Source: Verrucomicrobiota bacterium | GTDB lineage: Bacteria; Verrucomicrobiota; Verrucomicrobiia; Limisphaerales; UBA9464 | Direction: 5' to 3' | Length of the DNA: 64,000 nt | Assembly: GCA_016871615.1 (NCBI GenBank) | Contig: VHCX01000002.1 | Coordinates: forward strand, 12,935 to 76,934 | In this document: positions 26,426-38,521 of the stretch, one piece after another | Position numbering within the stretch: the stretch's first letter is position 1 | Layout: each line of letters begins with the position of its first letter | Notes under the pieces: model-generated | The model's database searches: none | What the model saw: only the letters and a program-made list of their open reading frames with translations | What the model was told of the DNA's origin: nothing | Translations under genes and position numbers: made by a program

Positions 26426-28228
26426 ATGGCCGAACCTTCCACACCCACCCGGACGCTCCTCGACCAGATGATCGCGGAGCACCAGCTCTCGCCGACCGAC
26501 GCCGAGGCGTTCCAGGGTTCCCGGTCCCGCTTGCCGGCCGTCGATGGCGCCACTGCTCCCGACATCGCCGAGCGTGAGGTCCTCGAGTGGCTGGCCGGAG
26601 AATACGGGGTGGCCTTCCTCGCGCTCGACTCGGTCGAGGCCGACCGGGAGGTCCTCGGGCTCTTTCCCGCCCGCATCCTGCTCAAGGAGGAGTTGCTGCC
26701 GCTGCGGCGCGACCAGGGCTCGGTCGAGATCGCCACCTGCCGGCTCTTCTCCAACCGCGGCATCGACACGCTGCGCTCGCTCACCGGCCTGCGCCTGAAG
26801 CGGGTCCTGTGCCCTCGCGAGGCGCTGCTGCGCGAGATGAAGAAGAACCTCGGCGTGGGTGCCGACACCATCGGCGCGCTCGACGAGGAGAAGTCCGTCC
26901 AGGTGGTCGAGGAGGTCCGCGACGAATCGAACCTCGACGCCGGTGCCGAGGACGAGGCGTCGATCATCCGTTTCGTAAACCAGGTGCTCAAGGACGCCAT
27001 CGAGCTGCGCGCCTCGGACATCCATCTCGAGCCCTTCGAGCACGAGTTCCGCATCCGCTACCGCATCGACGGCGAGCTACAGGAGATCCCGCTGCCGGCC
27101 CAGCTCAAGCAGTTCCAGCCGGCGATCGTCTCCCGAGTCAAGATCCTCAGCCACCTGAACATCGCCGAGAAGCGCCTGCCGCAGGACGGTCGCATCAGGG
27201 TGCGCATCGAGAACACCGAGGTGGACATCCGTGTCTCAATCATCCCCATGCTGCATGGCGAGGCGGTGGTCATGCGCCTCCTGCGGCAGAACTCCACCCT
27301 GCGCGGCCTCTCGGAGATCGGGCTCGGTCCGCGCGAGCTGGAGTGCTTCCGGCGCGTGCTCGACCTGCCCCACGGCATCGTGCTGGTGACCGGCCCGACC
27401 GGCAGCGGCAAGACATCCACGCTCTACACGGCGCTCAACGAGATCAACGACGAGGTCCGCAAGATCATCACCATCGAGGACCCGGTCGAGTACCAGCTCC
27501 GGGGCGTCAACCAGATCCAGGTCTCCGAGAAGGCCGGGCTGACCTTCGCGCGTGGCCTGCGTTCCATCCTGCGCCACGATCCCGACGTGGTCCTCATCGG
27601 CGAGATCCGCGACCGGGAGACCGCGCAGATCGCCGTGCAGGCCTCGCTCACCGGTCACCTGGTCTTCTCCACGCTGCACACCAACGACGCACCCGGCTCG
27701 GTCACCCGCCTGGTGGACATGGGGGTCGAGCCCTACCTGGTGGCCTCGTCGCTCGAGGCGGTGCTCGCCCAGCGCCTCGTGCGCGTGCTCTGTCCCAAGT
27801 GCAAGGAGCCAGACACATCGGCCAACGCCCGGGCCTTCCGGTCCCGCATGGGGATTGCGCCGGATACGCCGCTCTTCCGGGCCGTCGGCTGCCGCAATTG
27901 CCGGCAGACCGGCTTCAACGGGCGGCACGCCATTTTCGAGTGGATGGACACCGACGAGACGATCCGCCGGCTCATCCTCGAGGGCGCCTCCACCGACCAG
28001 ATCCGGGCGGCCGCCCGCGCTGGCGGCATGCGCACGCTGGCCGAGGATGGCTGGCGGCTCGTGGCCCAGGGCATCACCACGGTCGAGGAGGTGCTGGGAG
28101 TCACCACCGACAAGGAGAGCCCCCGGCCCGCCGCGGGCGAGGCCGAGGATTCCTCCGGTGAGCCCGGGGTCCCGGGTGACGACACGGCCCCCGGCTCCGC
28201 CTCCCGGTCCACCGCCGTCCGCCCCTGA
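26426..28228 (+). CDS. gspE: type II secretion ATPase GspE
   Basis: 600 aa. It has an N-terminal T2SSE_N-like domain, Walker A GPTGSGKTST, Asp/His boxes (PDVVLIGEIRD, TGHLVFSTLHTN) and the tetracysteine CPKC...CRNC. Confidence 0.93.
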   Translation: MAEPSTPTRTLLDQMIAEHQLSPTDAEAFQGSRSRLPAVDGATAPDIAEREVLEWLAGEYGVAFLALDSVEADREVLGLFPARILLKEELLPLRRDQGSVEIATCRLFSNRGIDTLRSLTGLRLKRVLCPREALLREMKKNLGVGADTIGALDEEKSVQVVEEVRDESNLDAGAEDEASIIRFVNQVLKDAIELRASDIHLEPFEHEFRIRYRIDGELQEIPLPAQLKQFQPAIVSRVKILSHLNIAEKRLPQDGRIRVRIENTEVDIRVSIIPMLHGEAVVMRLLRQNSTLRGLSEIGLGPRELECFRRVLDLPHGIVLVTGPTGSGKTSTLYTALNEINDEVRKIITIEDPVEYQLRGVNQIQVSEKAGLTFARGLRSILRHDPDVVLIGEIRDRETAQIAVQASLTGHLVFSTLHTNDAPGSVTRLVDMGVEPYLVASSLEAVLAQRLVRVLCPKCKEPDTSANARAFRSRMGIAPDTPLFRAVGCRNCRQTGFNGRHAIFEWMDTDETIRRLILEGASTDQIRAAARAGGMRTLAEDGWRLVAQGITTVEEVLGVTTDKESPRPAAGEAEDSSGEPGVPGDDTAPGSASRSTAVRP

Positions 28229-28231
28229 CCC

Positions 28232-29497
28232 ATGGCCACCTTCTCGTACCGGGCCCTGCAGGCCGATGGCGGCATGGCCGAGGGCCTCACCGAGGCGGCC
28301 AGCCGGCCGGAGGCTGTGCGGTCGCTCGAGGCCAAGGGGTTGCGCCCGGTGCGTGTCGTCGAGGCCCGAACGGGAGCCTCTGCAGCGTTGTCGTCGCGGG
28401 CGGGCGGATCGGCCAAGGCCGGGTCGGCGGGCCTTCCGGGCTTCTCCCTGGGCGGGGCCACGGTGAGCTCGGCCGAGCTGGAGAACTTCACCCGCCTGCT
28501 CTCCAGCCTCCTGGCCGCAGGCGTGCCCCTGAGCCGGGCGCTGACCATCCTCGGCAAGGAAGCCTCCTCGCCGGCGGCCGCCGCGAAGTGGCAGGAGATC
28601 CATGGCCTGGTGGTCGACGGCATGTCGCTGGCCCAAGCCATGGCCCGCTCGCCGGACACCTTCCCCAAGGTCTACACCGCCATGGTCGAGGCCGGCGAGG
28701 CCGGCGGCTTCCTCGATGTGGTGCTGGCCCAGATCGCCGACTTCCAGGCCCGCGAGAAGGAACTCCGATCCAAGGTGCTCACGGCGATGATCTACCCGGC
28801 GGTGTTGCTGGTGATGGCGCTGGTCGTTCTCACGGTTCTGCTGGTGTTCTTCATCCCCAAGTTCCAGAAGGTCTTCACCAGCGTGAAGGGTGCGCTGCCG
28901 CTGGTGACGCAGATCATCATCGCCGCCAGCGACCTGCTGAGGTCCTACGGCCTGCTGGTGCTCGGCGGCGCGGTGCTCGGGGCCTTCTTCCTGCGGACCT
29001 GGATCGTCTCGCCGGCCGGCCGCCGCATCTGGGAGGGGCTGACGCTGCAGGCCCCGGTGGTGGGCCCCTTGAGCGCACGGTTCGCCATGGCGCGGTTCTG
29101 CCGGATGCTCGGCACGCTCATCGGCGCGGACGTCCAGCTCGTGCAGGCGCTGAATGTCGCCCGGCGTTCCATCGGCAACCAGATCCTCGTCGACGCGGTG
29201 GCCCGCTCGATCGAGCAGGTGCAGCAGGGGGGCCGGTTGGGCCAGAGCCTCGCCGAGTGCCCGACACTCTTCAGCGGCTCGGTCATGGAGATGATCTCGG
29301 TCGCCGAGGAGAGCGGACGCCTGGACGTTGAATTGATCCGGATCGCCAACGTCACGGAAAGCGAGCTGGACCGCCGCCTCAAGACCGCCGTGGCGCTGGC
29401 CGAGCCGCTGCTACTGTTCCTGATCGCCGGTTTCATCGGCTTCATCTTCATCGGCATGCTGCTGCCGGTGTTCTCGCTCCAAGACTACATCAAGTGA
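28232..29497 (+). CDS. gspF: type II secretion inner-membrane platform protein GspF
   Basis: 421 aa with two T2SSF repeats (MVEAGEAGGFLDVVL and MISVAEESGRLDVEL) and 3 TM segments. It starts 3 nt after gspE and overlaps the gspG start (GTGA). Confidence 0.92.
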   Translation: MATFSYRALQADGGMAEGLTEAASRPEAVRSLEAKGLRPVRVVEARTGASAALSSRAGGSAKAGSAGLPGFSLGGATVSSAELENFTRLLSSLLAAGVPLSRALTILGKEASSPAAAAKWQEIHGLVVDGMSLAQAMARSPDTFPKVYTAMVEAGEAGGFLDVVLAQIADFQAREKELRSKVLTAMIYPAVLLVMALVVLTVLLVFFIPKFQKVFTSVKGALPLVTQIIIAASDLLRSYGLLVLGGAVLGAFFLRTWIVSPAGRRIWEGLTLQAPVVGPLSARFAMARFCRMLGTLIGADVQLVQALNVARRSIGNQILVDAVARSIEQVQQGGRLGQSLAECPTLFSGSVMEMISVAEESGRLDVELIRIANVTESELDRRLKTAVALAEPLLLFLIAGFIGFIFIGMLLPVFSLQDYIK

Positions 29498-29961
29498 TTG
29501 CCCACGATCCCATGAACCCCCACCCCCACCGCCGCCGTCCTGCCGCCTCCGGTCCCGACCGTCGCCGCTCGCGGGGCTTCACCCTGGTCGAGATGCTCCT
29601 GGTCATCACCATCATCGGCATCCTCGCCGCGCTGGTGGTGCCCAAGATGATGGGCCGCAGCGAGCAGGCCCGGCAGGCGGCCGCGCGGGCCGACATCGCC
29701 TCGATCAAGACGGCGCTCGACGCCTATGAGGTGGACAACGGCGGCTACCCCAAGGCGCTGGCGGACCTGCTCCAGGCGCCGAGGCAGGCGCGCAACTGGC
29801 GCGGGCCCTACCTCGACAAGATCCCGCAGGACCCCTGGGGCAACGAGTACCAGTTCGCGCAGCCGGGGCGGCAGAACGCCAACTCCTTCGACCTGTCGTC
29901 GATCGGACCGGATGGCAGGGCGGGGACGGAGGACGATTTTGGAAACTGGACGGCCAAGTGA
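29494..29961 (+). CDS. gspG: major pseudopilin GspG
   Basis: Prepilin motif RG/FTLVEMLLVITIIGILAALVVP and the GspG core ARADIASIKTALDAYEVDNGGYP...WRGPYL...DPWGNEYQ. Start is GTG 29494 or ATG 29512. Confidence 0.92.
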   Translation: MIAHDPMNPHPHRRRPAASGPDRRRSRGFTLVEMLLVITIIGILAALVVPKMMGRSEQARQAAARADIASIKTALDAYEVDNGGYPKALADLLQAPRQARNWRGPYLDKIPQDPWGNEYQFAQPGRQNANSFDLSSIGPDGRAGTEDDFGNWTAK

Positions 29962-30541
29962 CCTGGGGCCCCGGTCGGCCTGCCGGCGGAGCGCCTTCAC
30001 CCTGATCGAGATGATCCTGGTGATGGCGCTGCTCGTCGTGGCGGTCTCGATGGTCTCGCCCCGCCTGTCGGACTTCCTCCGTGGCCGAGCGATCGAGTCG
30101 GAGGCCAGGCGTCTCCTGGCTGTGACGCATGCCGCGCGCAGCCGGGCCATCACCGAAGGCCTGCCCGTCCTGGTGTGGCTCGACTCGGGGACCGGGACCT
30201 ATGGCCTCGAACGCGTCGACGCCGGCCGCTCCGGCGACCCCCAAGCCCGGCAGTTCGATCCGGACGACCAGGTCCGGGTGTCCTTCGACCGTTCGCAGCG
30301 CCTCATCGGCCAGACGGCCACCGGCGTGCCCATGCCCACTGTCCTGCCCGGCCAGTCCGGCCTCAGGCGCACCCCGGTCTCGACCACCCGGCAGGGTCCA
30401 TCGATCCGCTGGGACCCCGACGGGACGATCGACGAGGACAGCCCCAACGCCATCCGGGTGGAGGATGCGGGCGGGGCGGTCCTGTGGCTGGTGGAGGCCT
30501 CGAACCGGCGACATTATGAGATCCGCACGACCCTCGACTAG
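29912..30541 (+). CDS. minor pseudopilin (GspH-like)
   Basis: Prepilin motif SA/FTLIEMILVMALLVVAVSMV followed by RAIESEARRLLAVTHAARSRAI, typical of GspH/FimT. Start uncertain: ATG 29912 overlaps the gspG end by 50 nt. Confidence 0.7.
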   Translation: MAGRGRRTILETGRPSDLGPRSACRRSAFTLIEMILVMALLVVAVSMVSPRLSDFLRGRAIESEARRLLAVTHAARSRAITEGLPVLVWLDSGTGTYGLERVDAGRSGDPQARQFDPDDQVRVSFDRSQRLIGQTATGVPMPTVLPGQSGLRRTPVSTTRQGPSIRWDPDGTIDEDSPNAIRVEDAGGAVLWLVEASNRRHYEIRTTLD

Positions 30542-30938
30542 GCGGCGCCGCGCCGGCTACACGCTGGCCGAGACGCTCGCGGCGCTGCTGTTCTTGGCCA
30601 TCGTCATCCCGGCGGTGGTCGAGGCGCTGCACGTGGCAGGCCGGGCAGGCACCGCGTCGGTCCGTCGAGCCGTCGCCGCCCGCATCGCCGAGCGGATCCT
30701 CACGGAGAACACGCTGCAGACCAACCTCAACGCCACCGCCCAGAGCGGAACCCAGATGGAGGGATCGGTCGACTACCAGTGGACCCTCACGCGCGGGAAC
30801 TGGGTGGTGCCTGGGCTGCCCCAGGTCACGGCCGAGGTGAGGTTCCTGACCCAGGGACAGGAATCGTCGGTCCGCCTCACCACCCTGGGACACGCGGTGG
30901 ATGCCGTCGCCGGGGCGGGTCCCACGGCCACGCGATGA
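30516..30938 (+). CDS. minor pseudopilin (GspI-like)
   Basis: MRSARPSTRRRRAG/YTLAETLAALLFLAIVIPAVV has Glu at +5. It is small (140 aa), consistent with GspI. The start overlaps the previous gene by 26 nt. Confidence 0.65.
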   Translation: MRSARPSTRRRRAGYTLAETLAALLFLAIVIPAVVEALHVAGRAGTASVRRAVAARIAERILTENTLQTNLNATAQSGTQMEGSVDYQWTLTRGNWVVPGLPQVTAEVRFLTQGQESSVRLTTLGHAVDAVAGAGPTATR

Positions 30939-31699
30939 AACCCCTCCCCCAGGCGACCTTCCCCAGAGGGGACCGGCACCGATGGACGCCGACCCCGGCG
31001 AGGCCGGGGGCGTCATGGTCCCGCGCCGCCGGGGCGTTCACCCTGATCGAGCTCATCCTCTCGATCGGCGCGGCCGCCCTCATCCTGATCGTGGCCAACC
31101 AGGTGCTCTTCACCAGCCTGCGCCTGCGCGACAAGGTCTCCGGCGCGGTCGAGTCGGCCTTCCCGCTGGAGCTGACGCTGGACACGCTGCGCCTGGACCT
31201 CCAGGGCGTGGTCACGCCGAAGACCAACGGCATCCTCTCCGGCTCCTTCCGGGCGGGCCCGCTCCAGAGCACGGTCGACTCCCGGCCGGTCTCCCTGGAG
31301 TTCAACACCACCACCGGGTCGCTGCGCGAGACGGAGCCCTGGGGAGCGGTGCAGCGGGTCTCCTACAGCCTGAGGACCCCGGTGGATCCCGGCGGCGGAT
31401 CGCTCGACCTCTACCGGGGCGTCTGCCGCAACCTGCTCTCGCTTTCGGTGGCCCCGGTCGAGGACCAGCTGCTGCTCCGGGACGTGGCCCGCATCGACGT
31501 CGAGTCCTTCGACGGGCTCCAGTGGCTGCCCCAGTGGGACACCTCCGACACCTCGGGCGCGACCACCAACCTCCCGGTCGCCGTCCGGATCCGTCTCCAG
31601 CGGGGGCCGACCTGGGGGGCCGATGCCAGTCCCGTCGAGCTCCTGGTGCCCCTGGGCATCCAATCCCGCACCAACTCCACCAGCACCGTCGGAGGATGA
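30935..31699 (+). CDS. minor pseudopilin (GspJ-like)
   Basis: ...SRAAGA/FTLIELILSIGAAALILIV; 254 aa. ATGA start/stop overlap with the upstream gene. Confidence 0.65.
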   Translation: MKPLPQATFPRGDRHRWTPTPARPGASWSRAAGAFTLIELILSIGAAALILIVANQVLFTSLRLRDKVSGAVESAFPLELTLDTLRLDLQGVVTPKTNGILSGSFRAGPLQSTVDSRPVSLEFNTTTGSLRETEPWGAVQRVSYSLRTPVDPGGGSLDLYRGVCRNLLSLSVAPVEDQLLLRDVARIDVESFDGLQWLPQWDTSDTSGATTNLPVAVRIRLQRGPTWGADASPVELLVPLGIQSRTNSTSTVGG

Positions 31700-33126
31700 C
31701 CCGGATTTCCCCCAACCCGTCCGTCCGCCGGAGCCCCGCCCCCCGGGCCGCAGTGGCGCGTCGCGCCTCCGAGGCCTCGGTGCTGGTGGTCGTCCTGTGG
31801 ATCACCGCCGGCCTGACGGCGCTGGTGCTCTACTTCGCCGCCTCCATGGGCCTCGAGCTGCGCGCGTCGGCCAATCGCGCCGCCGACCTGGCGGCTGGGC
31901 AGGCCATCGAGGGGGCGATCCGCTACGTCGGCTGGGCGCTGGCCAATGTCGCGACCAATGGCGTGATGACCACCAACAACCTCTTCGTGTGCGAGGCGTT
32001 GCCGATCGGCGAATCACGGGTCTGGATCGTCGGCCGCGATCCCGCCGCCTCGCAGAACGGGCTCAACCAGGTGGTCTTCAACCTCCTGGACGAGGCGGCG
32101 AAGCTCAATCTCAACCGGGCCAATTCCAACGCGCTCGTGATGCTGCCGGGCATGACGGCCGAGCTGGCCGCTGCGGTGATCGACTGGCGCAGCACCAACG
32201 GTTCCCTCAGCCTGGGCTACGCGGGCCTGGGCTACGAGGCGAAGCGGTCCCCCTTCGAGAGCGTCGACGAACTGCGGCTGGTGCAGGGCATCACCCTCGA
32301 CCATCTCTACGGCGACGACCGCAACCTCAACGGCGTGCTGGATCCCGACGAGCCGGGCCTTGGCGGATCGCTCTTCGTCACCCCCGGGCTGCTGGACACC
32401 ACGACGGTGTTCAGCCGGGAGCCCAACTTCCACGCCGACGGCACCCAGCTCACCAACGTCAACACCCGGGTCCAGCTCCAGGGCCTGCTCGATTCGGCCT
32501 TCGGGTCCGGGCGCAGCCGGGAGATCCTGGGTCGCCTGGGATTATCGCAGGGCGGCGGTCCAGGCGGCGGCGGTGGCGCTGCGGCTCCGAACTTCCCGAG
32601 CCTGCTGCGCTTCTACCTGTCCAGCGGGCTGAGCCAGGACGACTTCGAGCGCATCGCCCCCGAACTGGGCGTCACCACCAACGCCTACAGCTACGGCCGG
32701 GTCAATGTGAACACGGCCAGTGCCATGGTCCTGACGGCGCTCCTGGTCGGGGCGGGCCTTTCGGCCGAGGCGGCCGAGGGGGCGGTCTCCACCCTGGTGC
32801 AATACCGGGACCAGAACCGCTCGAGCCTCGGGTCCATCGCCTGGGTTGTGGCGGCGCTGGGTCGCGATCATCAGGCCGTAACCACTTTGGCTGGCCGCGA
32901 TCTCCTTACGACGCGGAGCTTCCAGTATACCGCCGACCTGGTGGCCGTGGGGCCGCAGGGCCGGGGGCACCGACGGGTCAGGCTCGTGTTTGACATCAGT
33001 GATGGAGTTCCCAAGGTCATCCACCGACAGGACCTCAGCCGGCTGGGCTGGGCGCTGGGGGACCGTGTCCGAAGGCAACTCGCTGAACCGGAGGGCCTGC
33101 CCCTGATGGCCCGGGACAACCCATGA
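31696..33126 (+). CDS. gspK: GspK-like pseudopilin
   Basis: 476 aa. N-terminal hydrophobic helix without Glu+5 (SVLVVVLWITAGLTALVLYF). GspK blocks LLDEAAKLNLNRANSNALVMLPGMTAELAAAVIDWR and FESVDELRLVQGIT. ATGA overlap with the upstream gene. Confidence 0.8.
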   Translation: MTRISPNPSVRRSPAPRAAVARRASEASVLVVVLWITAGLTALVLYFAASMGLELRASANRAADLAAGQAIEGAIRYVGWALANVATNGVMTTNNLFVCEALPIGESRVWIVGRDPAASQNGLNQVVFNLLDEAAKLNLNRANSNALVMLPGMTAELAAAVIDWRSTNGSLSLGYAGLGYEAKRSPFESVDELRLVQGITLDHLYGDDRNLNGVLDPDEPGLGGSLFVTPGLLDTTTVFSREPNFHADGTQLTNVNTRVQLQGLLDSAFGSGRSREILGRLGLSQGGGPGGGGGAAAPNFPSLLRFYLSSGLSQDDFERIAPELGVTTNAYSYGRVNVNTASAMVLTALLVGAGLSAEAAEGAVSTLVQYRDQNRSSLGSIAWVVAALGRDHQAVTTLAGRDLLTTRSFQYTADLVAVGPQGRGHRRVRLVFDISDGVPKVIHRQDLSRLGWALGDRVRRQLAEPEGLPLMARDNP

Positions 33127-34622
33127 CGTCGTTCCTCCAACGGATTTCCCGCACCCGCAAGGCGCCCTCGGCCGTGCTCGGCCTGGCTTTCGACGGTCGG
33201 CGTGTCGTGGGCACGCTGCTGCGCCGCACGCCCGACGGCCTCCGTCCTTCCGGGGCGTTCGAGGCCGATCTGTCGGCCGATTTCGATGGGGCGGACTCTG
33301 AGGCGCTGGGCCGGGAACTCCGGGCTCGGCTCGACGAGGCGGGCTTGAAGGAGCGCCAGTGCGCCGTGGCCTTGCCGGTCCGGAGCCTCTGGGTGACCCA
33401 GACCGGGATTCCGGCGATGTCCGAGGCCGACGCGCAGGACCTCCTCCAGCTCGAGGCCGAGAAGGGCTTCCACACCGACGCGTCGACCCTCCATGTGGCC
33501 TCGTCGCGGTGCACCCTGCCCGACGGAAGCCAGTGGGCGACCCTGGCGGCCCTGCCACAGGCCCGCCTGGCCGCCCTCGAGCGCCTTCTCTCGGCCGCCC
33601 GTCTCAAGCCGGTGAGCATCGGAGCCGACCTCGTCGAGCTTCAACCGCCGGCCTCCGACCCTCCCGAGGGCGCCATCACCCTCAAGCTGGGCCAGGGATC
33701 CGGGTCCATCGGCCTGCAGGCCACTGCCGGCCGGGAAGGACTCCTGGCGCTGCGGTCCTTCGAGGGAGTCTCCGAGGACGCCGAGGGGCGGCCCGTGTTC
33801 GAGATCGACAGCGTGGCCCGCGAGATCCGGATCACCCTCGCCCAGCTGCCGGAGCCCTGGGGCCGTTCGCTGCGCGACCTCCGCATCCATGGTCCGCAGG
33901 CGTTGGCTCAGGCGCTGGCCGACGGCCTGTCGGCCCGTCTGGCCCTCTCGGGCTTCCGGGTTCAGATCGCCCCACGGGCGTCCACGATGGTGTCCATGGC
34001 CCCGATGTCCGCGATGGGATCCGCCGCCGGGACGGCCGGCCTCCCCGGCGTTTCCCCGGCGTCGGTCTCGGCCGTCGTGGCCGCCCGCGTGCTTTCGGGC
34101 ACCGTCCCGGCCACCCTCGAGTTCCTCCCGCCCAAGCCCTCGGTGCTCCAGCAGTTCCTGGTCCGCCATGCGCAGGGTCCACGGCGCACGGCGTGGGCCG
34201 TCTGTGGCGGCCTGGCCACCGTGGCCGTCCTCGCCTTCGGCGTGCAACAGGTGCGCCTGAGCCTGCTGGAGTCGCGCTGGGGCGCCCTGTCCGGCAAGGT
34301 CCGCGAGTTGGAGCGCATCCAGGAGGACCTGCGCCTCTTCCGTCCCTGGACCACCGGTTCAGCCCGTGGTCTGGCGATCCTCGAGGCCCTCACCAGCGCC
34401 TTCCCAGAGAATGGCTCCGTGACCGCCAAGGCCGTCGAGATCCGAGAGTCGGGCGAGGTGGTGTGCAGCGGCACGGCGACCGACAGTCCGGCCTTCCTCG
34501 CGATGACGGCCCGGCTGGGCTCCGTGCCCGGGGTCAGCCGCGTGCATCACGACCAGTCCCGCGGCTCGTCGCCCCTGCAATTCAACCTCCGTTTCGTCTG
34601 GGAGGGAAGCCAGGCCCGATGA
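33123..34622 (+). CDS. GspL/PilM-like assembly protein (cytoplasmic actin-like domain + TM + periplasmic domain)
   Basis: 499 aa. PilM/GspL-like N-terminus (VLGLAFDGRRVVGTLL...). A single TM helix lies near aa 360 (AWAVCGGLATVAVLAFGV), followed by a periplasmic ferredoxin-like tail. ATGA overlaps on both sides. Confidence 0.7.
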   Translation: MTSFLQRISRTRKAPSAVLGLAFDGRRVVGTLLRRTPDGLRPSGAFEADLSADFDGADSEALGRELRARLDEAGLKERQCAVALPVRSLWVTQTGIPAMSEADAQDLLQLEAEKGFHTDASTLHVASSRCTLPDGSQWATLAALPQARLAALERLLSAARLKPVSIGADLVELQPPASDPPEGAITLKLGQGSGSIGLQATAGREGLLALRSFEGVSEDAEGRPVFEIDSVAREIRITLAQLPEPWGRSLRDLRIHGPQALAQALADGLSARLALSGFRVQIAPRASTMVSMAPMSAMGSAAGTAGLPGVSPASVSAVVAARVLSGTVPATLEFLPPKPSVLQQFLVRHAQGPRRTAWAVCGGLATVAVLAFGVQQVRLSLLESRWGALSGKVRELERIQEDLRLFRPWTTGSARGLAILEALTSAFPENGSVTAKAVEIRESGEVVCSGTATDSPAFLAMTARLGSVPGVSRVHHDQSRGSSPLQFNLRFVWEGSQAR

Positions 34623-35155
34623 ACCCCGCCCAACGCCAACGTCTGCTGACGATCGTCACCCTGGCCGCGGTGGGCCTGTACCTCGCCGACCTGCTGGTGT
34701 TCTCGCCGCTGGGCCGCCTGTGGTCGGCACGCTCGGCGCGCATCCAGGCGCTCCAGCGTCAGGTCGCGGCCGGCCGGGCCCTCGTCCAGCGGGAGGCGGG
34801 TCTCCGGGGCCAGTGGGAACGCCTGCGAACCCACGCCCTGCCCGCCGAGGCCTCCGAGGCCGAACAGCGCCTCCTGCGGGCCTGCGACGAATGGGCCCGG
34901 GCCTCCGGGGCTCAGATCGTCGACCGCATGCCGCAGTGGAAGGGCGATGAGCCTGCCTACCAGATGCTCCGGTGCCGGCTCGAGGCGGCCGGGTCGCTGG
35001 CCAGCCTCACCCAGTTCCTTCAGCGCATGGAGGAAGGCCCGCTGGCCGTGAAGCTCGACAGCCTGCAACTCCTCAGCCGGGACACCGCCGGCCGACAGCT
35101 GACCCTGGGTCTGCAGGTCAACGGCCTCGTGCTCAACCCCCCGACGAAGCCGTGA
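34619..35155 (+). CDS. GspM/PilO-like bitopic assembly protein
   Basis: 178 aa: N-terminal TM (LLTIVTLAAVGLYLADLLVF), coiled coil, then a C-terminal alpha/beta domain. Its position after the gspL-like gene supports the call. Confidence 0.6.
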   Translation: MNPAQRQRLLTIVTLAAVGLYLADLLVFSPLGRLWSARSARIQALQRQVAAGRALVQREAGLRGQWERLRTHALPAEASEAEQRLLRACDEWARASGAQIVDRMPQWKGDEPAYQMLRCRLEAAGSLASLTQFLQRMEEGPLAVKLDSLQLLSRDTAGRQLTLGLQVNGLVLNPPTKP

Positions 35156-35859
35156 TGCCTCCACTCCTTCCGACGACGGCGCAGGAGATTGGCCGGCGGT
35201 TCCCCCTCTCTCGATCCTTGCGCCCGACCGTCGCCCGGGTCTGCCTCCTCGTGTTGGCCTGCCTAGGGCTCGCCATGCCAGGGCTCGGTGCCGCCCAGAC
35301 CAACGCCCCGGCGTCGTCGGACCCCGCCGCCCTGGCCCGCCGGGTCGCCGAGCGGAACATCTTCGATCCCGATCGGCAGCCCCGGATCCGGGGAGACTCC
35401 CGGCCGGCTCCCAAACCGCGGCCGGTGGCCGCCGCCGACGCGGCGGAGTTCGGCCTCGTGGGCGTCCTGTCCTATGCCCGCGGCACCTTCGCCTTCTTTG
35501 ACGGCAACGATCCCGAGTACCGCAAGACGCTCGCCGTGGCGGCGACCATCGCGGGGCATGCCGTCGACGCGATTTCCCCGCAGTCGGTGACCCTGGTGGC
35601 CTCGAACCTTCCGCCGGTCCAGCTCCGGGTGGGCCAGCGTCTGCGCCGCGATCCGGAGGGCCATTGGCAACCGGTGGCCTCGACGGGCGGTGAAGGCTCC
35701 TTCTCACGGGGCGCCTCCTCCAGGGGGGCGTCCGGCACGCTGTCCGGATCGTCCTCCGGTTTGGGGGCCGGCACCTCGGCCGCCGGGGCCGAGGATCCGC
35801 CCGGATCCGAAGAAATCTTGAAGCGTCTGCTGAAGAAACGGGAACAGGAGATGAAATGA
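35155..35859 (+). CDS. GspC/PilP-like secretin-interacting protein
   Basis: 234 aa: TM/signal anchor (VCLLVLACLGLAMPGLGAA), Pro-rich linker, then a beta-rich HR-like block FGLVGVLSYARGTFAFFDGNDPEYRKTLAVAATIAGHAVDAISPQSVTLV. TGATG overlap upstream and ATGA overlap downstream. Confidence 0.55.
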   Translation: MPPLLPTTAQEIGRRFPLSRSLRPTVARVCLLVLACLGLAMPGLGAAQTNAPASSDPAALARRVAERNIFDPDRQPRIRGDSRPAPKPRPVAAADAAEFGLVGVLSYARGTFAFFDGNDPEYRKTLAVAATIAGHAVDAISPQSVTLVASNLPPVQLRVGQRLRRDPEGHWQPVASTGGEGSFSRGASSRGASGTLSGSSSGLGAGTSAAGAEDPPGSEEILKRLLKKREQEMK

Positions 35860-37139
35860 AGACCTCGATCACTCGCGCCATGGGCACCGCCTGGGCCCTC
35901 GGATGCCTCGTCGGCGGCATGTTCGCGCAGGAGTCCGCGCGCCCGGCCGACGACTTGGCCAAGGCCCCGGCGCCACCGGAGACCTCACCGACGAGGCCGG
36001 CGGCGGGCGGCGGGCCCGGCATCCAGATGAATTTCCGCAACGCGCCGCTGGAGCAGGTGCTCGAGCACCTCAGCGAGGCGGCGGGCTTCGTCATCGTGCT
36101 GGAGGCCCCGGTGAAGGGCACGGTCAATGTCATCAGCGCCAAGCCGATGAGCCAGGACGAGGCCGTGGACTTCCTCAACACGGTGCTCAACCGGAACGGA
36201 CTCGCGGCCCTGCGCGACGGCCGCACCCTCACCATCGTCGATCGTACCACCGCCAAGAGCCGGAACATCCCGGTCAAGGTGAGCAACGACCCGCGGCTCA
36301 TCCCCAAGAACGACGAGATCGTCACTCAGATCATCCCGATCCGCTATGTCGAGGCCGACCAGTTGGCCAAGGACCTGGCGTCCTTCATCTCGCCGCAGGC
36401 CACCTTCGTGGCCAATGCGGCCGGCAACTCCATCGTGATGACCGACACCCAGTCGAACATCCGGCACATGGTGGAGATCATCCGCGCCATCGACTCCAGC
36501 GCCGAGGCGGAGACCGAGATCCGCGTCTTCCACCTCACGCATGCCAGCCCGACGGATGTGGCCACGGCCCTCTCGGGGGTCTTCCCGAGCAGCAGCGGCT
36601 CCGGCAACAACAACCAGGCTCCGGTGCGTTTCGGCGGTGGGCCCTTCGGCGGCGGCGCCGGAGGCTTCGCGGCGATGATGGGCGGGTTCGGCGGACGCGG
36701 AGGTGGCGGTGGCGGCAATGGCGGTGGCGGTGGCCGGGGCGGCTCCTCGTCCTCCGGGCAGAACGATCGCATCAAACGGGCCCAACAGGTGCTGGCCGTG
36801 GCCGACGCCCGGACCTCCTCGGTGATCGTGACCGCCTCGAAGGACCTCATGGGCCAGATCGCGGGCATGGTCCGCGAACTCGACGTGCCCTCGACCCGCG
36901 ACCAGCAGGTCCATGTCTTCCGGCTGGAGAACGGCGATCCGCAGCAGGCCGCCCAGGTGCTCCAGAACATGTTCCAGAGCACCACCTCGGGCCGGGCCGG
37001 CACCTCGGGCAACAACCAGAACAGCGCCCTCATGCAACGCCAGCAGAACAACAACCAGACGATGGGCAACAGCTCCGGGGGCACCGGCACCTTCGGCAAC
37101 AGCGGCGGCGGCGGCGGCCGCGGCGGCCAGCTCTTCTGA
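35856..37139 (+). CDS. secretin N-terminal half (N0/STN + Secretin_N domains, no pore domain)
   Basis: Signal peptide MKTSITRAMGTAWALGCLVGGMFAQ. An N0-like block (IQMNFRNAPLEQVLEHLSEAAGFVIVL) is followed by two complete Secretin_N-type domains, the second interrupted by a ~70-aa Gly-rich insert. Only the first half of a third domain (QVHVFRLENGDPQQAAQVLQNMF) is present. It ends in a Q/N/G-rich tail and lacks the C-terminal secretin domain. Confidence 0.8.
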   Translation: MKTSITRAMGTAWALGCLVGGMFAQESARPADDLAKAPAPPETSPTRPAAGGGPGIQMNFRNAPLEQVLEHLSEAAGFVIVLEAPVKGTVNVISAKPMSQDEAVDFLNTVLNRNGLAALRDGRTLTIVDRTTAKSRNIPVKVSNDPRLIPKNDEIVTQIIPIRYVEADQLAKDLASFISPQATFVANAAGNSIVMTDTQSNIRHMVEIIRAIDSSAEAETEIRVFHLTHASPTDVATALSGVFPSSSGSGNNNQAPVRFGGGPFGGGAGGFAAMMGGFGGRGGGGGGNGGGGGRGGSSSSGQNDRIKRAQQVLAVADARTSSVIVTASKDLMGQIAGMVRELDVPSTRDQQVHVFRLENGDPQQAAQVLQNMFQSTTSGRAGTSGNNQNSALMQRQQNNNQTMGNSSGGTGTFGNSGGGGGRGGQLF

Positions 37140-37174
37140 CATCCTCCAATCCCGCGCACCCCAACACGTTCCTC

Positions 37175-38521
37175 ATGAAACTCCCCGGATCTCACCCTGT
37201 CGGCTCCCCGCATGGGATGGCCTCGATCCTCCGGCTCCCAGCGTGGTCGCCGATCCTCCTGGCCTTGGCCTTGGCGCTGGCCATCAGCCCGCCGATTTCC
37301 GCCCAACAGGGCCGGGGCGGCGGCGGCGGGTTCGGTGGCGGTGGGGGCGGCTTCGGAGGGTTTGGTGGCGGGTTTGGTGGCGGCGGCGGGTTTGGTGGGG
37401 GCGGCGGCAACCGCGGTGGCGGTTCCTCCGGCCTCTACAACAACAACGGCACGGTCGGCAGCGCCCTGATCTCGGTCGATCCCCAGACCCACAACCTGGT
37501 GGTCATCGCCGATTCGCTGACGGCCCTGCAGATCAGCAACGTGCTGCGCAACCTCGACTCGCCCAAGCCCCAGGTGCTCATCAAGGTGGTCTTCATGGAG
37601 GTCCAGCGGAACAACGGCTCCGAGCTCGGGGTCGAGGGCGCCTGGGCCAAGAACAACATCGGCAACAACGTCAGCAGCGGCGCTGGCACGGTCTTCGGGC
37701 TCTCCGGCGTCAACAACGTCACGACCAACCTCAACGGCCTGGGCTCCTCCATGGGCTCGGCGCTGACCCCGTCGGCGACCGGGGGCGGGGCCGGCGGGCT
37801 GTACCAGATCGCCGGGTCGGAGTTCCAGGCGACGCTCCGCGCCATGGCCACCTCGGGCAAGGCGCAGGTGCTGTCGCGTCCCTCGATCATCGCCCGCGAC
37901 GGACAGCTCGCCCGCATCGTCGTCGGCCAGCAGGTGCCGCTGCCCAGTGGCGTCTCCTACGCCACCTCCGGCGCCAACGTCATCCCCATCATCAACGTCA
38001 CCTACAACGACGTGGGCATCATCCTCAATGTCACACCCTTCATCGGTGCCAACGGCCAGGTGGAGATGATCGTCCAGCCGCAGATCTCCTCGGTCTCGGC
38101 CAACGAACGTCAGTCGCTCTCCGAGGATGTCTCGGCACCCTACATCAACGTGCGCTCGGCCGACACCGTGGTCGTCACGCCGCATGCCGAGACCGTCGTC
38201 ATCGGCGGGCTCATCTCCAACAACCAGTCCCAGACCGAGAAGAAGGTGCCCTACCTGGGCGACATCCCCGGCCTGGGAAACCTCTTCAAGACCCGCGCCA
38301 AGAGCGATGCCAAGACCGAGCTGCTCATCTTCCTCACGCCCTACATCCTCAAGGCGCCGTCCCAGTTGGCCCAGTTGACGACACCGGAGACCCACAAGGC
38401 CTCGCTGTTGACCAATTCGATCTCCGAGAACGACCTCAACCGCTTCCTGGAGCGGGTGCCCGTGAAGCCGGAGTCCCCGCCGGCGCCCGCGCCGAAGTCA
38501 AAGGGCTGGTTCAAGAAGTGA
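37175..38521 (+). CDS. gspD: secretin C-terminal half (own signal peptide, pore-forming secretin domain)
   Basis: Signal-like ILRLPAWSPILLALALALAISPPISA/QQ, then a (G/F)-rich tract and a half N-domain (ALISVDPQTHNLVVIADSLTALQISNVLRNLD). The secretin domain follows (LRAMATSGKAQVLSRPSIIARDGQLARIVVG...VPYLGDIPGLGNLF...TELLIFLTPYIL). Alternative start ATG 37217. Confidence 0.85.
   Translation: MKLPGSHPVGSPHGMASILRLPAWSPILLALALALAISPPISAQQGRGGGGGFGGGGGGFGGFGGGFGGGGGFGGGGGNRGGGSSGLYNNNGTVGSALISVDPQTHNLVVIADSLTALQISNVLRNLDSPKPQVLIKVVFMEVQRNNGSELGVEGAWAKNNIGNNVSSGAGTVFGLSGVNNVTTNLNGLGSSMGSALTPSATGGGAGGLYQIAGSEFQATLRAMATSGKAQVLSRPSIIARDGQLARIVVGQQVPLPSGVSYATSGANVIPIINVTYNDVGIILNVTPFIGANGQVEMIVQPQISSVSANERQSLSEDVSAPYINVRSADTVVVTPHAETVVIGGLISNNQSQTEKKVPYLGDIPGLGNLFKTRAKSDAKTELLIFLTPYILKAPSQLAQLTTPETHKASLLTNSISENDLNRFLERVPVKPESPPAPAPKSKGWFKK

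Follow-up and report, generated by a model that had tools for sequence, protein, structure and literature searches.

Secretins are known from textbooks as the single-chain outer-membrane channels of type II and type III secretion systems (T2SS and T3SS), type IV pili and filamentous phages. In the T2SS this role belongs to GspD, a gated channel of 12 to 15 subunits which exports folded proteins across the outer membrane. To our knowledge, all secretin structures solved to date are homo-oligomers of one chain. The present work concerns the gspD position of a T2SS operon from a member of the Verrucomicrobiota (assembly GCA_016871615.1, contig VHCX01000002.1, positions 12,935 to 76,934). This stretch of 64,000 nucleotides (nt) is called the window, and all coordinates given below refer to it. 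Here the secretin very probably consists of two exported chains, GspD-N and GspD-C, encoded by two adjacent open reading frames (ORF1 and ORF2), and the cut falls inside N3, the last of the periplasmic N-domains.

An earlier note on this DNA, made from the sequence alone, had contrasted the locus with canonical secretins as single chains. That contrast holds generally, but two exceptions have been published, one among rhizobial T3SS genes and one in the T2SS of mitochondria. The T2SS found in the mitochondria of jakobids, heteroloboseans and malawimonads has its secretin on several polypeptides, namely GspD, GspDL and GspDN1-3 (Horvathova et al. 2021, PMC8134430). In GspDN3 a low-complexity tail comes after the N-terminal half of an N-domain, whose C-terminal half is found in GspDN2; the authors reported that the N-domain pieces could not be matched to N1-N3 (PMC8134430). 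In the rhizobial T3SS, rhcC1 (nolW) and rhcC2 have been called a split secretin gene, whose functional significance was given as unknown (PMC3574062, PMC3973906, PMC4500985). According to a passage of PMC4500985 that cites Abby and Rocha 2012, rhcC1 is the remnant of an old secretin and rhcC2 a separately acquired Tad-like secretin. A secretin complex of two different proteins has been described in BfpB-BfpG, where the partners are present at 1:1 and touch each other close to the N3 ring (PMC12531336). Full-text literature searches returned no description of a split bacterial T2SS secretin.

On the + strand of the window, 35856-38521 is occupied by two ORFs. ORF1 (35856..37139) is read in frame 0, encodes 427 amino acids (aa) and stops at TGA, while ORF2 (37175..38521) is read in frame 2 and encodes 448 aa. 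They are separated by an intergenic spacer of 35 nt (37140..37174, CATCCTCCAATCCCGCGCACCCCAACACGTTCCTC). The positions, spacer and difference of frame given in the earlier note were thus reproduced by ORF calling. The GspD equivalog model TIGR02517, which has 600 positions, is covered in whole by the two proteins jointly. ORF1 matches positions 1-294 (193.4 bits) and ORF2 positions 283-600 (247.4 bits), and therefore the two abut on one GspD model; singly, neither passes the cut-off of 351.35 bits. Pfam recognizes N0 and three Secretin_N stretches in ORF1, and PF00263 Secretin alone in ORF2. The best matches to GspD structures in the PDB have E = 3.6e-19 for ORF1 and E = 2.6e-40 for ORF2. Along the chain of XcpQ from Pseudomonas aeruginosa (5wln), residues 201-267, comprising the end of N2 and beta1-alpha1 of N3, are aligned with ORF1 306-372. 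XcpQ residues 270-580, which run from the Gly-rich loop of N3 through beta2-beta3-alpha2 into the secretin domain, are aligned with ORF2 77-402.

The start of ORF2 is called by JGI at 37217, giving 434 aa; homologues align from 37175 (MKL...), and the signal-peptide n-region has about 15 additional residues in the lineage of the window. An ORF of 872 aa, open in the frame of ORF2 from 35903 to 38521, spans all of ORF1, owing to the GC content of the window DNA (68-69%). It was rejected as a true gene, for ORF2 homologues have their start where 37175 lies (MK...) and not upstream.

The division of the gene is widespread. The identical ORF1 sequence occurs on 18 contigs from separate samples and different metagenomes. 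Its homologues form more than 120 database clusters of 420-450 aa at 65-99% identity, all with N0 and Secretin_N and none with a secretin domain. ORF2 likewise has homologues in more than 120 clusters, of about 395-440 aa and 56-99% identity. The annotations attached to the homologues go no further than 'secretin N-terminal domain-containing protein', 'gspD 1' or 'general secretion pathway protein D'. Among the GTDB species representatives, 571 relatives of ORF2 were confirmed by a scan. Of these loci the best 80, nearly all from Verrucomicrobiota (Limisphaerales, subdivision 3, Verrucomicrobiia), were analysed, and 77 of them include upstream DNA. In 77/77 of the latter an ORF1 homologue stops shortly before the ORF2 start, and the split is conserved in these 77 species at 49-99% identity. 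Their spacers measure mostly 3-44 nt, with a median of 26, two negative values reflecting start codons picked too far upstream. Nine loci (L028, L037, L046, L047, L053, L063, L066, L072 and L076) come from metagenome-assembled genomes (MAGs) titled Bifidobacteriaceae, Bifidobacterium, Dongiaceae, Sulfotelmatobacter, Limnocylindria or Acidiferrales; these non-verrucomicrobial GTDB titles probably denote mislabelled or mis-binned contigs.

The second chain has a signal peptide of its own, predicted at residues 1-43 of ORF2 (37175..37303, +) and ending in ...ISPPISA/QQ, where the slash marks the cleavage site. A43 and Q44 are invariant in an alignment of 18 sequences. By the classical criteria for n-, h- and c-regions, all 78 ORF2 heads (the window and the 77 species) have K/R in the n-region, a hydrophobic stretch and an A/Q site. 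The best 9-aa Kyte-Doolittle mean of the hydrophobic stretch has a median of 2.76 and a minimum of 2.11 (n=78), and position -3 of the A/Q site holds L, A, I or V in 72/78. The Sec signal peptide read by the earlier note at the start of ORF2 is upheld by these sequence features, and both it and the split are conserved in the related genomes (77/77 species). Lipoprotein signal peptides were considered for ORF1 and ORF2 and rejected, the Cys of the h-region not being conserved and a lipobox being absent. The 18 contigs, the half-length clusters, the 77 species and the ORF2 signal peptide bear out the real fission which the earlier note preferred, and we regard a genuine fission into two exported chains as close to certain.

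N1 and N2 are complete in ORF1, and N3 is divided between ORF1 348-375 and ORF2 98-131. The first half, N3a (RDQQVHVFRLENGDPQQAAQVLQNMFQS; 36897..36980, +), consists of beta1-alpha1 and aligns with the same elements of N3 in XcpQ. The second half, N3b, matches the second half of the XcpQ domain and, together with the YNNNGTVGSA motif that precedes it (residues 88-97), lies at 37436..37567 (+). N2 (36510..36893, +), delimited by Pfam, PDB and hhalign comparisons, provides an intact relative within the same protein. Its beta1-alpha1 (219-245) and beta2-beta3-alpha2 (305-346) flank an insert of 59 aa in the alpha1-beta2 loop (residues 246-304, 36591-36767, +), which is rich in G, F and M (FGGGAGGFAAMMGGFGG...). 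Profiles were built from the 78 genome-paired sequences and compared by hhalign. N3a (ORF1 348-375) joined to N3b (ORF2 93-131) matched N2 without its insert with a probability of 97.9% and E = 4e-13, over 64/67 columns and at 30% identity; as a yardstick, N2 matched N1 with a probability of 97.4%. The joined halves thus correspond to N2 from one end to the other, which puts the break in the alpha1-beta2 loop, at the place where N2 carries its insert. The earlier note had put the break in this loop and was right about the location; its figure of about 70 aa for the insert of N2 was too high. The assignment of half a domain to each ORF, also made there, agrees with the TIGR02517, XcpQ and profile-profile alignments. 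The homology of N2 and N3 is further indicated by an alignment artefact: given natural-order concatenates with full-length homologues as unpaired rows, MAFFT matched N2b from one family with N3b from the other.

Both halves are conserved to about the same degree as complete domains. Expressed as mean identity to the window over the 77 species, N3a reaches 0.71 and N3b 0.66, N1 0.75, the halves of N2 0.67-0.69 and the secretin core 0.69-0.70, and the inserts and remaining tails 0.28-0.46. The YNNNGTVGSA motif, directly before beta2, is the most conserved segment of all (0.88), and a motif in the tail of ORF1, QNSALMQRQQNN (37017-37052, +), attains 0.70, against 0.28-0.37 for the rest of that tail. 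As judged from these identities, both N3 halves and the two tail motifs are under purifying selection.

A possible contact between the chains was found by mutual information with average product correction (MI-APC). The top N3a-N3b pair couples ORF1 351, which immediately precedes beta1, with ORF2 114, where alpha2 begins. These residues are oppositely charged in 34/77 species (K-E 21, D-K 8, K-D 3, R-E 2) and like-charged in 0/77, where 10.5 would be expected by random re-pairing; none of 5000 shuffles reached 34 opposite-charge pairs. At the positions that hhalign equates with these in the intact N2, E-K occurs in 59/77. A swap of polarity between chains at the positions of a conserved intra-domain charge pair of N2 is what a shared fold predicts.

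Several points count, with some reserve, against a rebuilt N3 domain. The pair 351/114 was chosen post hoc as the top scorer, and the 77 species are phylogenetically related. Among these sequences, MI-APC covariation between N3a and N3b was no higher than between control pairs of regions. Two AlphaFold2 runs, made on single-chain concatenates with ORF2 first (reversed order) and unpaired alignments of 33 and 115 rows, did not confidently rebuild N3 or dock N3a. N3a formed its helix only, with a predicted local distance difference test score (pLDDT) of 52-68, and beta1 stayed unformed (< 50) in both runs; N3b was modelled as strand-strand-helix with a pLDDT of 71-85. The suggestion of the earlier note that an N-domain is complemented in trans is accordingly plausible with regard to the conserved halves and the covarying charge pair, and less so with regard to the unformed beta1. 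Covalent re-joining of a sortase-like or intein-like kind was also considered, and no motif in its favour was noticed, without a dedicated search.

The same break point was found far beyond the closest relatives. An exhaustive search with ORF1 was conducted against the representatives of 50%-identity clusters, and the best 150 matches were examined. A secretin domain is absent from 105 of them, 102 of which have at most 700 aa. With hidden Markov models (HMMs) of the half-domains, a beta1-alpha1 half followed by a tail (median 49 aa) was found to end 99/105 of these N-only proteins. A second, more distant family, assigned to Pedosphaera or Verrucomicrobiales where named, has N-parts of about 500-600 aa in the same operon and is broken at the same place. 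One of its loci (L083) has adjacent genes for 573 aa and for 403 aa, the latter with the secretin domain, and a spacer of 42 nt. The first protein ends in ...VYVYSLENAEVDQVQQVLQDMF and a tail ...GGF; the second opens with MN...LLPAQA/QFGG...YYNNSTVGDAVVSVDPETKRVVVITD. Only one secretin of ordinary length among the 150 is unsplit (P0328, 915 aa), and at the equivalent break point it has a loop of about 40 aa rich in Q, N, G and S. This loop plausibly represents the precursor state of the split. The remaining 44 are giant proteins of 1666-5532 aa, 43 of them with a C-terminal secretin domain. In the giant secretins (within P0241-P0378) 9-50 matched stretches were counted, and 24-50 in those longer than 2,600 aa; P0356 has 9 such stretches and, by Pfam, 11 Secretin_N domains. 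If so many N-domain rings were stacked, the result would be a very long tube in the periplasm.

These observations can be brought together in a likely, if unproven, explanation, in which an ancient and fixed fission of GspD left two separately exported chains that rejoin non-covalently through a rebuilt N3. Cut in place and anciently fixed in this state, gspD makes up the two closing genes of a gspE-F-G-H-I-J-K-(L)-M-(C) operon. Both chains would be exported separately by Sec and cleaved at A/Q. GspD-C would then form the outer-membrane multimer, and GspD-N the N0-N2 rings which contact GspC and the inner-membrane platform. The N3a of GspD-N would dock on the N3b of GspD-C, giving one ring-building N3 domain and a non-covalent joint. 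The low-complexity tails, with their QNSALMQRQQNN and YNNNGTVGSA motifs, would sit at this joint. Taken by itself, the complementation of N3 in trans is, on the sequence evidence, the step that we favour with reasonable rather than strong confidence.

The main rival reading is a real fission without complementation. GspD-C would then be a self-sufficient short secretin with few N-domains, similar to pIV or MshL, and GspD-N an independent periplasmic ring or adaptor on GspC and the platform, whose N3a and tail would bind, say, substrate, peptidoglycan or a neighbouring subunit. The failure of AlphaFold2 to dock N3a on N3b is in line with this, MI-APC does not discriminate, and the MshL model spans ORF2 99-392 end to end, so secretins this short exist. 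Against it stands the conservation of N3a, level with that of complete domains and with many residues invariant. A lone beta2-beta3-alpha2 half would expose the core of the fold, and the joined halves match N2 from end to end. The charge pair between the chains mirrors the E-K pair within N2, and the break position is kept in nearly all of the distant N-only relatives. We consider this alternative unlikely, although it deserves to be kept in mind.

A programmed -1 frameshift or stop readthrough, by which an ordinary single-chain GspD would be produced, is very improbable. Frame 2 is open from 35903 to 38521, so a -1 shift anywhere in the tail of ORF1 would fuse the ORFs; this open frame is, in turn, as 68% GC predicts. 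The frame of ORF2 relative to ORF1 is 0, 1 or 2 in 23, 25 and 31 of 79 scored sequences (the window, its duplicate L001 and the 77 species). In the relatives ORF1 ends with TAA, TGA or TAG, and none lacks the in-frame stop. Within the window, the TGA is followed at 37176-37178 by another stop in frame with ORF1, which speaks against readthrough. Nor do the relatives share a slippery site, which weighs against a programmed shift. A fusion protein would also have a conserved hydrophobic signal peptide halfway through a periplasmic domain. A pseudogene or an indel from sequencing or assembly, suggested by the position of the break, which has low-complexity, GC-rich and hence indel-prone DNA on both sides, can be dismissed as the least probable of all, given the identical sequence in different samples, the split kept in 77 species and a second family, the conserved signal peptide that arose at the break and the purifying selection on both parts. 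A split which is conserved while frames and stops vary is therefore no assembly error, pseudogene or conserved frameshift, and these alternatives of the earlier note did not survive the comparison.

The remaining features of GspD-N are those of a secretin N-terminus followed by a low-complexity tail. Its predicted signal peptide comprises residues 1-24 (35856..35927, +) and ends in ...GGMFA/QES, A24 and Q25 being invariant in the alignment of ORF1 homologues. N0 extends over residues 58-130 (36027..36245, +) and is supported by PF21305 (1.2e-13, ORF1 58-122) and by alignments to N0 of GspD in the PDB. N1, a Secretin_N domain, covers residues 154-216 (36315..36503, +). After N3a, the tail of 52 aa (residues 376-427, 36981..37136, +) is rich in N, Q, S and G and has invariant columns among the homologues. 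The protein ends in ...GGQLF (37125-37136, +), and the last residue is aromatic in 64/78 sequences (F 59, Y 5). The more distant N-only families often end in ...GGF or ...SRF. By analogy, a C-terminal Phe on a periplasmic fragment may recall the beta-signal of outer-membrane proteins or a docking peg.

In GspD-C, the signal peptide is followed by a G/F-rich tract which would form the mature N-terminus (residues 44-87, 37304..37435, +). Its GGFGGFGG composition is conserved, with an identity of 0.46, and its pLDDT is below 40. The insert of N2 resembles this tract in composition. After the YNNNGTVGSA motif and N3b comes the pore-forming secretin domain (residues 132-402, 37568..38380, +), which was assigned by PF00263 (1.8e-47; ORF2 223-393, full profile 1-169) and by GspD and PilQ structures in the PDB.

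Both ORFs close a T2SS operon, with ten genes upstream on the same strand. Pfam, NCBIfam and the JGI calls on the identical contig L001 identify gspE (26426-28228), gspF (28232-29497), gspG (29494-29961), gspH-like (30023-30541), gspI-like (30516-30938), gspJ (30935-31699), gspK (31696-33126) and gspM (34619-35155). The gene in the gspL position (33123-34622) encodes a protein of 499 aa with no match in Pfam or NCBIfam. The last of the ten is a gspC-like gene of 234 aa (35155-35859) with a weak GspC match (NF041515, 4.5e-4). As these T2SS genes stand directly upstream, ORF1 and ORF2 occupy the gspD position of a complete T2SS operon. The genes gspJ, gspK, the one in the gspL position, gspM, gspC-like and ORF1 overlap successively by 1-4 nt, which suggests translational coupling from gspJ to ORF1. 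In the run from gspJ to ORF2 (30935-37175), the ORF1-ORF2 junction has the sole spacer. At this junction no obvious Shine-Dalgarno sequence was seen, and the 35 nt contain no promoter-like or + strand terminator-like site. The gene 3' of ORF2 encodes a phosphoglycerate mutase and is unrelated.

The host organisms are uncultured and known only as MAGs. If it is true, a two-chain GspD would be a natural experiment in the coupling and assembly of periplasmic rings and pore, in the complementation of an N-domain in trans and in the birth of signal peptides after fission. The split also matters for annotation. Where annotation pipelines and T2SS detection models expect one GspD, both halves fall below the cut-off, and such systems are wrongly reported as incomplete or credited with two gspD genes.

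The comparison with canonical GspD was made with E. coli GspD (5wq7), V. cholerae EpsD (5wq8), P. aeruginosa XcpQ (5wln) and K. pneumoniae PulD (6hcg). The window shares with them the order N0, N1, N2, N3 and secretin domain, the context of a T2SS operon and the same order along the GspD model. It differs from them in having two polypeptides, cut in the alpha1-beta2 loop of N3, and a second signal peptide, as well as the 59-aa insert in N2 and, where the chain is cut, long tails rich in G/F and N/Q. The rhizobial rhcC1 and rhcC2 resemble it in that N-terminal and C-terminal parts of a secretin are found on separate genes. They belong, however, to a T3SS, are separated by other genes and are mosaic, whereas ORF1 and ORF2 belong to a T2SS, lie side by side and adjoin along a single GspD model. 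Unlike GspD-N, BfpG is no piece of the secretin itself; it is a partner unrelated to it, and no domain is divided. Split secretins are thus on record in one T3SS lineage and in mitochondria; we found none described among bacterial T2SS, and the clean cut within a domain, the newly formed signal peptide and the broad conservation appear to be new here.

A further likeness is with the mitochondrial T2SS. In the supplement of PMC8134430, the sequence of GspDN3 shows beta1-alpha1 (MFFYYPKYLHPEAVALIAQNLL), a low-complexity tail and a stop. That of GspDN2 runs from beta2-beta3-alpha2 directly into FDRPPQQLFLEFVFVEV...FRY, the motif which opens the secretin domain, and the best PDB match of its profile is 6i1x residues 200-246, that is, N3b and the start of the secretin. 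GspDN2 therefore corresponds to the N3b-secretin junction, and the mitochondrial break falls in the same N3 loop. A specific kinship was not shown by profile searches. The GspDN2 profile scored 13-16 bits on heads of the ORF2 family, 7.9 on ORF2 of the window and up to 18.7 on giant secretins, compared with 7.4-7.5 on the XcpQ and E. coli fragments and 12.0 on 6i1x (one domain). The GspDN3 profile gave only two matches above 7 bits, probably driven by its low-complexity tail. Neither profile clearly preferred verrucomicrobial over proteobacterial GspD.

A far-reaching and quite speculative proposal, to which we give little credence, would combine a built-in non-covalent joint in the conduit, functional tails and a mitochondrial break derived by descent from a bacterial lineage with split GspD. 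GspD-C in the outer membrane and GspD-N on the platform would then each assemble into a ring of their own, and the rings would dock as N3 is formed anew. The joint would carry fifteen-fold sets of tails rich in G/F and N/Q, which could serve as, say, a tether, a seal or a mesh. Were this proposal true, it would offer a first lead towards the donor from which the mitochondrial T2SS came.

The two systems have in common that an N-domain is halved over two polypeptides, here with N3a in ORF1 and N3b in ORF2, and that the break occurs in the same loop. The mitochondrial system alone is eukaryotic and nuclear-encoded, with dispersed genes, without N0 and GspC and with its secretin domain split further, whereas the operon of the window is bacterial, encodes N0 and includes a gspC-like gene. 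The common break point, whether convergent or inherited, makes the origin and architecture of the mitochondrial T2SS comparable with a bacterial counterpart.

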